Below are positions 1 through 58,110 of a DNA stretch of 64,000 nucleotides, in pieces. This DNA is from Mizuhopecten yessoensis (taxonomy: Eukaryota): assembly GCF_002113885.1 (NCBI RefSeq), contig NW_018408896.1, positions 2,574,425-2,638,424 of the forward strand, read 5' to 3'. A program made the translations under genes and the position numbers. Numbering within the stretch: position 1 is the stretch's first letter; each line of letters opens with the position of its first letter. The notes beneath the pieces are model-generated. The model worked only from the letters and a program-made list of their open reading frames with translations, was not told the origin of the DNA and did no database searches.

Positions 1-88
1 GTTACACTATGTGTCAATATGTTACACTATGTGTCAATATGTTACAAAGCATGTCATTGATATGATACAAAGTATGTCAGTATGTTAC

Positions 89-228
89 CTGTTCTATACC
101 CGGTTGTATGGGGTTGTACAGGGGGCGTGTCTCAACATGCTCTTTGACTATAGGGAGGGTATTCAGTACATGGAGGGCAAGTCTCTCATCCGGCTGTCCA
201 AGGTCAGGGTCAGAGCGTGGATTCACCT
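89..228 (-). CDS. MYOF: ferlin exon ([22 protein letters not shown]...[18 protein letters not shown])
   Basis: 140 nt, phase 1-0, conserved EHVETR..PGIEQ. Confidence 0.95.
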
Positions 229-544
229 CTGTAAATATATCCACAATTACAACATTTATATACTTTTTCTTATAATAACTTAAGGTTTTTACCCTATGAA
301 GTCATACCAAATTATGTTCATGAAAATATCACAGCAAGATTGTAACTGACCTAAGTATGTAACAAAAATAACATTACTTCAAATAACTGCGAATTTGAAG
401 GAAAAGGGCAACCAAAGCCACGTAAATTCTTGATTTAAATGTTTTGATAATTTAACTAATAAATATTACAAAATTTGATAGAATTACATGTAAAGTTACG
501 TATCTCATTAAGAGAGTAATTTCTGAGACAGGTAGAGGTCGTAC

Positions 545-690
545 CAAAGTCGGACAGGCTGTACGTTTTATTGGCGACCTTGACACTGTTGGTGCCGTAG
601 AACAGGGGGCCTGTCAGGTGGTTCTTCTTACAGTACCAGTCCAGGATCTCCTTTGGTTTCTGGCTGTCTCTCCACTGGTTCACACCCGCT
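545..690 (-). CDS. MYOF: ferlin exon (AGVNQWRDSQKPKEIL...YSLSDF)
   Basis: 146 nt, phase 2-1. Confidence 0.93.
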
Positions 691-934
691 CTGTTCACAG
701 ATAGATAAAAGGTACTAGTTCACATACTGGTAACCTGTTCACAAATACACTGTTCACACCCATTCTATTCAGATTGATAGATCAAAGATACTGGTTCACA
801 TTTACTTGTTAATTTTAGTTATACTAGTTCACACTTAACCAGTGCACAGATAGATGGATAAAACTTGCCCTTGACCAACCTGTTCACAAAGATAGTTGAA
901 AGTTTTCTAATGCGGTTCACAACTATTTACTTAC

Positions 935-1105
935 ACATAGTAGGACTTAGGGATGCCACATGTAGCTCTGTGTTTTGACAGGAAGCGGTTCTCAAGGTCA
1001 ATGATGGTCTCCCCTATGAGGTCATCGCTGCTAATGATGTCATAGTCCTTGATCCTCACAATCAGATCCTTCTTCACTGGTAGAGTACACTTCAAGTCAA
1101 ACGTC
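935..1105 (-). CDS. MYOF: ferlin exon, C2F (TFDLKCTLP...DYDIISSDDLIGETIIDLENR...CGIPKSYYV)
   Basis: 171 nt, phase 2-2. Confidence 0.96.
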
Positions 1106-53290: not shown

Positions 53291-53754
53291 ATATACATCA
53301 TTTGATATAGCCCCCTATCCAACTAACATAACTAAGCCACTCTAAAGCGATTTATAGTTCATAGACATACAATGCAATTAGCATATACATTAATCAATAC
53401 AATTTTTGAGGAATTAGCAGGAGCTGCCTTATCATGCGCAAACTACTAGTCCTATGCCACCTGGCTATTATCTCCCTATGTGTGTATGCCTATGTCATTG
53501 TGTGTACGGGAGGTGTATTGTGTTCTGTTTGTAGTGGGACCATGCTTCCAACGGTATCATTCATAGTGCCACCTCACTTGAATGCTACAGCACAGATACC
53601 ACAACATCCACCACAGACCAATTTATTCTCCACCTGGGTTATTGGAGTTGTGTGGGCATGACAAAAACACTTTCTCTGAATATCCATGCGTACTATATGA
53701 AGGGAACAAGGGGCTTTATATCAAGGTTTCCTGTATGGGATAGATTAGGGCCTT

Positions 53755-56390
53755 TCTATTGAGGTTTTACTGTATATCATAATTGGGGGGGNATTATATT
53801 GAAGTTTAACTGTATATCATAATTTGGGGTGTTATAGTGAGGTTATATTGTATAGTATGAATGAGGGGCATTATATTGAAGTTTTACTGTATATCATAAT
53901 TGGGGTGTGTGATAGTGAAGTGTTATTGTATAGTATAAATGAGGGCATATTAAAGCTTTACTGTATATCATAATTGGGGTGTGTGATAGTGAAGTGTTAT
54001 TGTATAGTATAAATGAGGGCTTATATTGAAGTTTTACTGTATATTATTATTGGTGTGTGTGGTAGTGAGGTGTTATTGTATAGTATTAATGAGGCCATTA
54101 TATTGAAGTTTAACTGTATATCATAATTGGGAGGGGGTGGGGGATAGTGAGGTGTTATTGTATATAGTATAAATGAGGGGCATTATATTGAGGTTTTATT
54201 GTATATTATTATTGGGGTTTGTGATAGTGAGGTGGTATTGTATAGTATAAATGAGAGTATTGAGGTTTTACTATATCTTATAAATGAGGGCATTATATCG
54301 AAGTTTTACTTTATATTATAAATGAGGGCATTATATTGAGGTTTTACTATATATTATAAATGAGGGGCATTATATTGAGGTTTTATTGTATATTATTGTT
54401 GGAGTTTGTGATAGTGAGGTGTTATTGTATAGTATAAATGAGGGGCATTTTATTGAAGTTTTACTATTTATTATTATTGGGGTGTGTGATAGTGGGGTGT
54501 TATTGTATAGTATAAATGAGGGGCATTTTATTGAAGTTTTACTATTTATTATTATTGGGGTGTGTGATAGTGAGGTGTTATTGTATAGGATAAATGAGGG
54601 ATTATATTGAAGTTTTACTGTATATTATTATTGGTGTGGGTGGTAGTGAGGTGTTATTGTATAGTATTAATGAGGCCATTATATTGAAGTTTAACTGTAT
54701 ATCATAATTGGGAGGGGGGGGGGGGTAGGGGGGTGTTATTGTATATAGTATAAATGAGGGGCATTATATTGAGGTTTTATTGTATATTATTGTTGGAGTT
54801 TGTGATAGTGAGGTGTTATTGTATAGTAGAAATGAGGGCATTATATTGAAGTTTTACTTTATATTATTATTGGGGGGTGTGATAGTGAGGTGTTATATTG
54901 TATAGTATAAATGAGGGAATTATATTGAGGTTTTATTGTATATTATTGTTGGAGTTTGTGATAGTGAGGTGTTATTGTATAGTATAAATGAGGGATTATA
55001 TTGAAGTTTTACTGTATATTATTATTGGGGTGAGTGATAGTGAGTTGTTATTGTATAGTATAAATGGGGGCATTATATTGAAGTTTTACTGTATACCATA
55101 ATTGGGGTGTGTGATAGTGAAGTGTTATTGTATAGTATAAATGAGGGCTTATATTGAAGTTTTACTGTATATTATTATTGGGGTGTGTGATAGCGAGGTG
55201 TTATTGTATAGTATAAATGAGGCGCATTAGATTGAAGTTTTACTGTATATTATTATTGGTGTGGGTGGTAGTGAGGTGTTATTGTATAGTATTAATGAGG
55301 CCATTATATTGAAGTTTAACTGTATATCATAATTTGGGGTGTTATAGTGAGGTTATATTGTATAGTATGAATGAGGGGCATTATATTGAAGTTTTGCTGT
55401 ATATCATAATTGGGGTGTGTGATAGTGAAGTGTTATTGTATAGTATAAATGAGGGCATATTAAAGTTTTACTGTATATCATAATTGGGGAGTGTGATAGT
55501 GAAGTGTTATTGTATAGTATAAATGAGGGCATATTAAAGTTTTACTGTATATCATAATTGGGGAGTGTGATAGTGAAGTGTTATTGTATAGTATAAATGA
55601 GGGCTTATATTGAAGTTTTACTGTATATTATTATTGGGGTGAGTGATAGTGAGTTGTTATTGTATAGTATAAATGGGGGCATTATATTGAAGTTTTACTG
55701 TATACCATAATTGGGGTGTGTGATAGTGAAGTGTTATTGTATAGTATAAATGAGGGCTTATATTGAAGTTTTACTGTATATTATTATTGGGGTGTGTGAT
55801 AGCGAGGTGTTATTGTATAGTATAAATGAGGGGCATTATATTGAAGTTTTACTGTATATTATTATTGGTGTGTGTGGTAGTGAGGTGTTATTGTATAGTA
55901 TTAATGAGGCCATTATATTGAAGTTTAACTGTATATCATAATTGGGAGGGGGGGGGGGATAGTGAGGTGTTATTGTATATAGTATAAATGAGGGGCATTA
56001 TATTGAGGTTTTATTGTATATTATTATTGGGGTTTGTGATAGTGAGGTGGTATTGTATAGTATAAATGAGAGTATTGAGGTTTTACTATATCTTATAAAT
56101 GAGGGCATTATATCGAAGTTTTACTTTATATTATAAATGAGGGCATTATATTGAGGTTTTACTATATATTATAAATGAGGGGCATTATATTGAGGTTTTA
56201 CTGTACAGTATAAATCACTCAGAGGGGCATTATATTGAGTTTAACAGTATTGTATAGCTAATACGCATTATATTGAGTTTAACAGTATTGTATAGATAAT
56301 ACGCATTATATTGAGTTTAACAGTATTGTATAGATAATACACATTATATTGAGGTTTTACTTTGTAGTATAAATAAGAGGCATTATATTA
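53755..56390. repeat. about 75-bp AT/G-rich satellite with internal block duplications
   Basis: gaagttttactgtatattattattggggtgtgtgatagtgaggtgttattgtatagtataaatgaggggcattatatt; a single n at 53792. Confidence 0.92.
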
Positions 56391-57863
56391 GGCTGTACAG
56401 TAAAGTATAAAACACAAACATCATTACATGTACACTAACTAACATATGGATCAGATCCACTTAAAACATAGGACACAGGCTCCACTCAATGCATAGGGCA
56501 CAGCTTCACCAGTTAACATTTAAGTGGTGAATAAAATGCAATATCACAGAAGGTACTTACTATTAAGAGAGAAAGTATTATAAAAATTTCCTGTATGATC
56601 TTTGCCAGTCAAAAATGGCGAACACACATCAAGAAGATGACAACGTTATGCAGCTTGTGATGCACAAGTGTTGTTAATCAATTGATTTTACAGTAAAAGT
56701 TTCAATGTACATGTACATGGTGTTTCAGAAGCATCTGTTACAAATTCATATGAAATATATCTTCTTATATCTGCTCAGGCATTTTAAATTAATTTTATTG
56801 ATTATAGGGAGATTTTTTTTATCTTAAGGTATGAATTAAAGATGACTGAATCCCTTACTCAGAATGACAAAGCTAAATTCATTGTACAAGTAGAAAATGC
56901 TTGTTTGTGATCCTTAAATTTGACAGCTGGCCAACATTAATCTAACTATGTAGGAAGAAAGTGGATTTCTTTTTACAAAATTGTAGACTTCAACTTTAAT
57001 AATAAATTGAGAGATTTTGTCTGGGTGATTACGACATGATGAGAAATACTATACAGTAATTTATGTATTGCATGAGGGAAACATTAAAATTTCTTTCCGT
57101 GTGAAATCATGTACCTCAAGGATGAGGGGAGAAACACAAGGGAAACATTATTTTTTCTTTCCCTATAAAATAGTCATGTTCCTCAATGGAGAGGAGAGAA
57201 GCACAAGAGAAACATTAATATTTCTTTCCCTGTGATTAATCATGTTTCCATAAGGAAAAGACAGAAGCATGATTGTAACATATTTTTTTTTTTTTGCATA
57301 ATGTTTTTCCCCAGTGGCAATTAGAGATGTGTGAGGGAAACATGATTGATGGTGGGAAAACATATATGCATGTCTCCCTTGAGGGGAGATAACAGGGGAT
57401 TTTCTTTTATACCAAAATAGAAAATATACACAAGAGTTTTAGACAAGAATATCTCATTTTGTGATTTATGTACACAGCAGGCATAATGGCATGTGATACA
57501 CAGAGGATGTAAATCTATAACAATAACAGATGCATATTAATTCAATTTGTGGAAAGTGGATAAATAGCTCTTTCAGATTCTACATCAATTTTCCACAATT
57601 ACTGTGTATTAGTAACATATTTTACCAGCAATAAACCCTGGGGTATTGAGTTAGTCCTTAAATACAGTATATGAAACTGACTTTTCATTATTTCTGAAGG
57701 ACATGACCCTCATTTGTAAATTCTGTTTCACAATGGAGGTGGTCTTAAAAACAGATTAGTAAGATATCTGTTGATGGCTGGTTTCAGTTTTGAGGTACAG
57801 CTTGGACTAAAAGTCTATGATACTATAGTAGTTCCATTCCAGCATGAGTCCCTGATGAGGTTT

Positions 57864-58104
57864 GTTAGGGACTGTTGGGGACTGTTAGGGACTGTTGGGG
57901 ACTGACAGGGACTGGCGGGGACTGTTAGGGACTTCCAGGACTGTCGGGGACTGTTAGGGACTTCCGGGACTGTCAGGGACTGTCAGGGACTGTCCGGGGA
58001 CTGATAGGGACTGTCCGCTGACTGATAGGGACTGTTAGGGACTGTCCGGGACTATTGGGGACTGTTCGGGACTGATAGGGACTGTTAGGGACTGTCGGGG
58101 ACTG
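57864..58104. repeat. 10-bp tandem repeat (gggactgtta) abutting the C2A exon donor
   Basis: about 24 degenerate units. Confidence 0.9.
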
Positions 58105-58110
58105 CTGTAC

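Follow-up and report, generated by a model that had tools for sequence, protein, structure and literature searches.

Splice-site-associated minisatellites in a Mizuhopecten yessoensis ferlin gene and a modest excess of tandem arrays at exon-intron junctions

Introduction

Minisatellites lying across exon-intron boundaries have been described in amphioxus as "mirages", in Adh3, the globin genes BflGb6 and BflGb9, TnC and PGBD5. According to the available portions of the two reports (PMC3087553, PMC3902484), many of their units, though not all, keep the GT or AG of the splice site, splicing appears normal, array-edge units are reported to lie outside homogenisation, and the origin of the arrays is called unclear. 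Here we describe comparable structures in a 64,000-nucleotide stretch of the Mizuhopecten yessoensis genome (contig NW_018408896.1, positions 2,574,425 to 2,638,424; henceforth the window), which carries a predicted ferlin gene with tandem arrays at its splice sites. As in the accessible amphioxus descriptions, the host is a marine invertebrate and repeat units span either a 5' or a 3' boundary. A reading of the sequence alone (the original prediction) had proposed that duplications seeded at these junctions multiply the gene's own splice sites, that the resulting decoys decay under selection, and that this opens a route to splice-site turnover or exon extension.

Related arrays are known from human genes. 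In the part of the report available to us, the 37-bp variable number tandem repeat in intron 7 of F7 has a first unit that spans the donor and is followed by identical pseudo-donors, and the most upstream site is used (PMC1557585). Cited alongside it are 6-16 (IFI6), CBS, lamin B2 and PDGF; the first two of these genes also make use of two pseudo-sites (PMC1557585). More generally, the accessible text of De Grassi and Ciccarelli (PMC2812944) describes internal tandem repeats that alter human gene structure, and the Rogers model, as cited in the available portion of PMC3087553, derives intron gain from the duplication of proto-splice sites. Work on how repeat length affects splicing (PMC10078293) has no bearing on the present test. 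Our literature search, for which most subscription journals were beyond reach, returned no statistical test of junction-associated arrays of this kind and no report from a mollusc. The structure itself is thus already known; what we add is an excess of arrays at junctions, modest but replicated, which depends on copy number and is weighted towards donors.

Results

Array edges are enriched at junctions in held-out genes

The original prediction placed array edges at splice junctions more often than chance would. In held-out genes they are indeed enriched there, 1.3-1.6-fold overall and 1.5-1.8-fold among arrays of at least four copies. The held-out sample consisted of introns of dynein heavy-chain, myosin and ferlin genes of the same genome (about 1.9 Mb fetched), called by protein homology together with splice matrices trained on the ferlin gene of the window. 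Junction-calling accuracy on that gene, which is also the training gene, was 35/38 and 34/36. A second homologue search brought back vertebrate DNAH6 alone, and distant references therefore served to locate the outer-arm and cytoplasmic dyneins. We excluded introns lacking a near-gapless protein match, repeat periods below 10 and arrays covering a whole exon; a further 15 of the 771 accepted introns were removed for containing more than 10 N, leaving 756. Arrays account for about a quarter of the held-out intron sequence (165 of 686 kb). During the collection of myosins, several genomic myosin-head matches (e.g. C2688, C5046, C1165 and C1925) turned out to lie in open frames 800-1460 residues long, a length uncommon for exons here; these are possibly repeat-derived frames or intron-poor genes.

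The discovery set comprised 15 dyneins with 547 usable introns and 261 arrays. Array edges lay within 20 nt of a junction in 58 cases against 34.9 expected, and in 40 against 20.0 for arrays of at least four copies. For replication, the test was fixed beforehand (arrays of at least four copies, at most 20 nt from a junction) and applied to 209 new introns, yielding 19 against 11.3 expected (P 0.023); the myosin part contributed 8 against 3.1. We then combined all 756 introns, with 1512 junctions, 394 arrays and 30 gene units, under a refined null. Overall, 87 of the 394 arrays end within 20 nt of a junction, where 54.8 are expected, a ratio of 1.59 (gene-block bootstrap 1.22-1.91). When deep spans are included, the counts are 110 and 84.1 (1.31-fold, gene-block bootstrap 1.04-1.57).

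The excess and its copy-number trend are stable under four settings of Tandem Repeats Finder (TRF). A count made independently of TRF found a copy of the junction 24-mer within 200 nt at 47 of 656 donors and 23 of 656 acceptors, with 0 in controls. A neutral simulation run through the same pipeline returned ratios of 1.07-1.15. Junctions spanned outright by an array number 65 of 1512 (4%), with 52.7-69.6 expected depending on the null; if the same 4% held genome-wide, this would, by extrapolation, correspond to thousands of loci.

The excess rises with copy number and lies, on balance, at donors

Examining the arrays by copy number revealed a steady trend. The observed-to-expected ratio for arrays within 20 nt of or spanning a junction is 0.96 below three copies, 1.24 at 3-6, 1.50 at 6-15 and 1.76 at 15 or more. 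Arrays below three copies show no enrichment at junctions (27 against 28.0 expected), and among exact two-copy duplications, a small sample of 24, one spans a junction where 1.7 are expected. On the donor side, array edges are scattered from -25 to +13 with no fixed breakpoint. Birth anchored at the junction predicts enrichment at the lowest copy numbers and a fixed breakpoint; neither was found, and this part of the original prediction is therefore disfavoured.

The two sides of the intron also differ. Donors carry 66 arrays against 42.2 expected (P 0.0004), or 45 against 23.8 at four or more copies, and spans of donors by arrays of at least four copies number 30 against 15.4. Acceptors show no net excess (44 against 41.9). 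There, deep spans are scarce (5 against 14.5 expected), and nine arrays end at the AG itself, 2-3 nt short of the exon, where about 1.3 would be expected. Spans number 44 at donors and 21 at acceptors (P 0.006). Abutting arrays are equally enriched on both sides, with 15 against 8.4 at donors and 16 against 8.4 at acceptors. Simulated neutral birth followed by homogenisation up to a protected signal reproduces both the acceptor peak and the deficit of deep spans; the acceptor pattern could also reflect loss of harmful upstream acceptors or erosion of the flank.

Further properties of the arrays bear on how they persist. Donor-spanning units are richer in GC (41.7% versus 38.1%), and in arrays far from junctions unit GC tracks copy number (rho 0.22). 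Introns with arrays of at least six copies contain less unique sequence (median 546 versus 873 nt, P 0.0006), as expected if flanks are lost while arrays tied to the exon cannot be deleted whole. We also considered whether arrays near junctions were born spanning them and then decayed. Homology reaching into the exon was found in only 2 of 44 arrays with a gap of 0-20 nt, shuffled controls giving 0-2 high scores, and this candidate was rejected.

The ferlin gene and its junction arrays

The gene in the window is, judging from homology, myoferlin/dysferlin-like. Its coding sequence lies on the minus strand, and a 44-exon model encodes 1713 amino acids with 0 stops. Identity of the model to mollusc myoferlin/dysferlin proteins is 60-68% in five cases and 51% in a sixth, and RNA reads show 11 of its exon-exon joins. 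The gene extends past both window ends, its flanking exons being located in the neighbouring stretches L049-L052. The gene and the repeats at its junctions are as follows.

89..58202, minus strand: myoferlin/dysferlin-like gene with 44 coding exons in the model, plus a mutually exclusive exon and a microexon of 15 nt; based on an open model, homology and RNA joins
34171..35265, minus strand: 36-bp array, 30.5 copies, spanning donor 35237; each unit joins about 30 nt from the exon end to GTAAGG
2662..3273, minus strand: 86/87-bp array, 7 copies, spanning acceptor 2718; each unit joins about 30 nt from the intron end to 57 nt of exon
32445..32967, minus strand: 56-bp array, 9.3 copies, starting at the GT of donor 32968
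29294..29416, minus strand: 37-bp array, about 3 copies, flush with donor 29417
20589..21055, minus strand: 54-bp array passing through degenerate units up to donor 21056
1..88, minus strand: 20-bp array beginning at donor 89; related 20-bp units continue past an N gap in L049
691..930, minus strand: decayed repeats upstream of acceptor 690, missed by TRF; best copy 17/24 bases
24173..24260, minus strand: single decayed copy of acceptor 24172, 77 nt upstream; 18/24 bases, AG changed to TG
14449..16257, minus strand: 42-bp array of 43 copies with 99% identity, 16 nt away from donor 16274, which lies outside it
57863..58104, minus strand: 10-bp array, 24 copies, 6 nt from donor 58111, which lies outside it
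23262..23403, minus strand: 36-bp array of 4 copies, separated by 11 nt from the acceptor of a microexon predicted at 23239-23250 (12 nt); absent from the original prediction

All ten junctions named in the original prediction are splice sites of the 44-exon model. RNA reads confirm 89, 690, 2718 and 35237, and the remaining six are predicted by the model and homology. Copies of the splice site had been claimed at eight of the ten. Three of these are strong cases with many intact decoys. The 36-bp array places 29 extra donor copies downstream of 35237, of which 26 keep the GT; the first decoys are in frame and free of stops, and each would insert 12 residues. The 86/87-bp array places six extra acceptors upstream of 2718, with AG in 6/6; they score 6.9-10.0, the authentic site itself scoring 10.0, and splicing at the nearest two would bring in an in-frame TAG. 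In the 56-bp array, GT is kept in 8 of 9 copies. The claim holds moderately at 29417, where three cag/gtatat copies score 8.6 and the real site 12.6, and weakly at 21056, where two GT copies score 4.2-4.3 and the homogeneous 54-bp units read AT. At 690 and 24172 it holds in the form of decayed low-copy duplications, which are real: copies matching at least 17/24 bases occur at 1 of 656 control acceptors, and 18/24 at 0 of 656. At 89 it fails, no copy scoring above 4. The arrays at donors 16274 and 58111 adjoin their sites without containing them, as had been described. The proposed "stages" from intact to lost GT or AG correspond to arrays that exist, but these are separate arrays and form no measured series.

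TRF reports 40 merged arrays with periods of at least 10 across the gene span. Under a null that places arrays as points, 5 of 40 touch junctions where 0.09 are expected (P 5e-8); we dropped this null, which ignores unit length. It is unfair because there are about 40 positions in which a founder unit of some 40 nt lies across a junction without damage to the exon. With founder units modelled, 9 of 37 arrays in the ferlin gene lie within 20 nt of or span a junction against 6.4 expected (P 0.2, not significant), and the gene ranks fifth of 17 genes in the share of junctions with such arrays. Beyond the window, in L049, a 13-copy 42-bp array spans the next ferlin donor by 12 nt, and a 51-bp array has its end 17 nt from the acceptor of that intron. 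The ferlin gene is thus a vivid but ordinary example of a known structure, and the measurement is the useful part.

Authentic sites are used and decoy signals do not decay preferentially

RNA evidence covered about a fifth of each run and the junction-near copies of two of the three strong arrays (36-bp and 87-bp). At 35237, at least 23 reads join the authentic donor to exon 33743, and depth over the first decoys (35110-35231) is 0, 0.16, 0 and 0 in four runs. Use of these decoys should not be hidden by nonsense-mediated decay, since the first of them are in frame and stop-free. At 2718, 46 reads join the authentic acceptor; decoy use could be under-counted here because a decoy acceptor adds a stop. 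Acceptor 690 is used at its authentic site in 85 reads.

Among the matches listed, five reads of run X22 fall at 2892, a decoy acceptor. Their T>C variant is also that of the real exon (2692/2866, 174 nt apart), X22 depth across the intervening bin is zero, and the reads are best explained as mis-mapping. Run X24 has about 120 bases of unexplained depth near the same decoy. Separately, a 33-nt intronic piece at 1320-1352 is matched by 50-59 X24 reads that continue into other sequence, and is probably a dispersed repeat from another transcript.

The RNA reads contained no repeat-derived exon extension or turnover at 35237 and 2718. Alignment to P0034, a Mytilus ferlin model, shows no gap at seven of the nine internal named junctions; P0034 itself is gapped near 32968 and 21056. 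The splice-site turnover or exon extension envisaged in the original prediction is therefore seen in neither the RNA nor the protein alignment of this gene, the held-out set being filtered for near-gapless junctions and so uninformative on exon extension or intron gain.

Selective decay of the decoys had also been proposed. Across 57 spanning arrays of the held-out genes, 331 of 386 donor copies retain GT and 187 of 216 acceptor copies retain AG. Compared with the real site, identity is 0.909 at the donor GT versus 0.864 at neighbouring intron bases (41 arrays, P 0.31), and 0.866 at the acceptor AG versus 0.876 at neighbouring bases (16 arrays, P 0.81). These values come from arrays that had to be called as spanning to enter the test, which favours intact signals; on the other hand, residual exon homology is nearly absent (2 of 44) from arrays ending short of a junction. 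Likewise, in the 36-bp array the G is changed in 1 of 29 copies and the T in 2 of 29, with a mean of 1.8 changes per other position. GT and AG are thus no more changed than their neighbours, which is the outcome that had been named as counting against selective decay. One mutation apiece is enough to account for the signals lost at 21056 and 24172, whether it later spread or stayed in place.

Other features of the window

Two similar exons on the minus strand, 41849-41931 (83 nt) and 38590-38666 (77 nt), look mutually exclusive; either preserves the frame, each is spliced to exon 35873 in RNA, and P0034 has both in tandem. The 15-nt microexon at 37610-37624 (minus strand) is supported by three reads of X24. 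Further small exons with strong signals are predicted on the minus strand, of 12 nt at 23239-23250 and of 33 nt at 17993-18025, as is a GC donor, AG/GCGAGT, at 46019 (minus strand), which the open frame requires. In the poly(A) run X24, intronic depth of about 1-7 covers 35964-37061 and 37672-38525, with none in X19 and X23; this could be a retained intron or an overlapping transcript.

Among other repeats, 46366-46870 holds two 146-bp units followed by a CGGACGC-type microsatellite, which we take to resemble the Helentron-like elements of bivalves. A pair of related elements, each about 100 bp long and bounded by inverted ends (TTTAACCCTTTCACC), lies at 3750-3852 and 39617-39709; their TTAA flanks and CCC ends are reminiscent of piggyBac-type miniature inverted-repeat transposable elements.

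Discussion

The observation behind the original prediction is largely real; the course it proposed, from anchored birth through selective decay to turnover, finds no support. We consider it probable that these are mirage-type minisatellites that arose through ordinary tandem duplication without a favoured site and underwent sorting after birth, and the excess itself looks likely to arise once the repeats exist. A duplication straddling a junction would survive, its extra exon piece falling into the intron and the first donor being used, by analogy with human F7. The exon would then act as barrier and anchor as arrays age and grow: homogenisation or flank loss would proceed to the invariant signal and halt there, and an array tied to the exon could not be deleted as a whole. 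Donor-spanning units would carry GC-richer exon sequence, associated with higher copy number, and acceptor copies with long exon tails would be lost or overwritten. Together, these steps would produce an excess that is larger at higher copy number and, on balance, limited to donors.

Several points weigh against this explanation. The four-copy split was picked after the discovery data had been seen; the dynein part of the replication alone is not significant (10 against 8.1 expected); the most conservative null lowers the excess to 1.15-fold (110 against 95.6, P 0.08); and expectation is exceeded in just 19 of the 30 gene units. None of six simulated neutral scenarios yields the donor excess, the top total ratio being 1.15. 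Deletion protection and GC-driven growth lie outside the simulations, and this step is argued rather than shown. Protection should reach farther than 50 nt from the junction, yet the excess has faded by that distance. Residual exon homology in 2 of 44 gapped arrays fits erosion or full homogenisation and proves neither. Finally, RNA depth is low, and the sequenced animals differ from the reference, so that alleles may differ.

How much of the excess needs explaining at all is a fair question. Array density, founder geometry and an imperfect null might account for the counts, as the ferlin window taken alone, the number of spanned junctions, a pipeline bias of up to 1.15-fold and neutral simulations with homogenisation that reach 1.28-1.45-fold for the ±20 nt class would all allow. 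We regard this as unlikely, given that the donor counts, in total and at four or more copies, exceed every simulation and that the copy-number trend and an independent replication stand beside them. The junction-seeded duplication of the original prediction, with its decoys, selective decay and eventual turnover or exon extension, can point to the enrichment of array edges in held-out genes, to the arrays at 89 and 32968 that start exactly at the GT, to the copies at 21056 and 24172 that have lost GT or AG, and to the first 36-bp decoys, through which extension is possible in principle. It is nonetheless very improbable in the face of unenriched arrays below three copies, the scattered donor breakpoint, GT and AG changed no more than their neighbours, and authentic sites used in RNA.

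Donor arrays might, alternatively, expand faster through a mechanism tied to the junction itself, either recombination or repair tracts starting in conserved exons and slipping once they reach polymorphic introns, or single-stranded DNA linked to transcription or splicing at the 5' splice site. Such a mechanism would suit an excess that is limited to expanded arrays, net at donors, about one unit in scale and unreproduced by neutral simulations. We think it improbable, since GC content and deletion protection predict the same direction and abutting arrays are enriched equally on both sides. The related claim, that minisatellites overlapping a 5' splice site are about twice as prone as others to expand or persist (30 against 15.4, at least four copies) through a donor-tied process such as exon-anchored recombination or splicing-linked DNA exposure, is doubtful. 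If true, it would mean that gene architecture steers repeat growth and that thousands of natural, copy-variable decoy arrays exist genome-wide.

The present data separate the birth of the arrays from what happens to them afterwards, and so bear on how mirages arise. They are also relevant to the way in which the spliceosome passes over identical sites close by, upstream acceptors among them. For annotators there is a caution: the aligner used here once chose a decoy acceptor (C4373).

Comparison with the known systems places the locus among them. Boundary-spanning units, the defining feature of mirages, are clear at 35237 and 2718 and weak at 29417 and 21056; the arrays at 32968 and 89 start at the GT, and those at 16274, 58111 and 23250 merely abut. 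Signals are retained as in mirages, both in the window (26/29, 8/9 and 6/6) and in held-out genes (331/386 and 187/216), and splicing is undisturbed at 35237 and 2718. Among the human cases, as far as the available text of PMC1557585 describes them, F7 is matched by the 36-bp array at 35237, where the upstream donor is used and identical downstream pseudo-donors are silent. F7 and its kin differ in being isolated human loci that involve donors only, and 6-16 and CBS in their pseudo-site use, of which none was seen here at low RNA depth. Human internal tandem repeats, in the accessible part of that work, share the boundary position and units of about 30 bp; unlike them, and unlike intron gain of the Rogers type as cited, the arrays here came with no change found in exon or intron structure. 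The host is a mollusc and not a cephalochordate, and amphioxus mirages, as the available portions of their reports present them, are single-gene examples without a chance test. In the present genome, by contrast, their frequency, their copy-number trend, the asymmetry between donors and acceptors and the absence of GT or AG decay have been measured.

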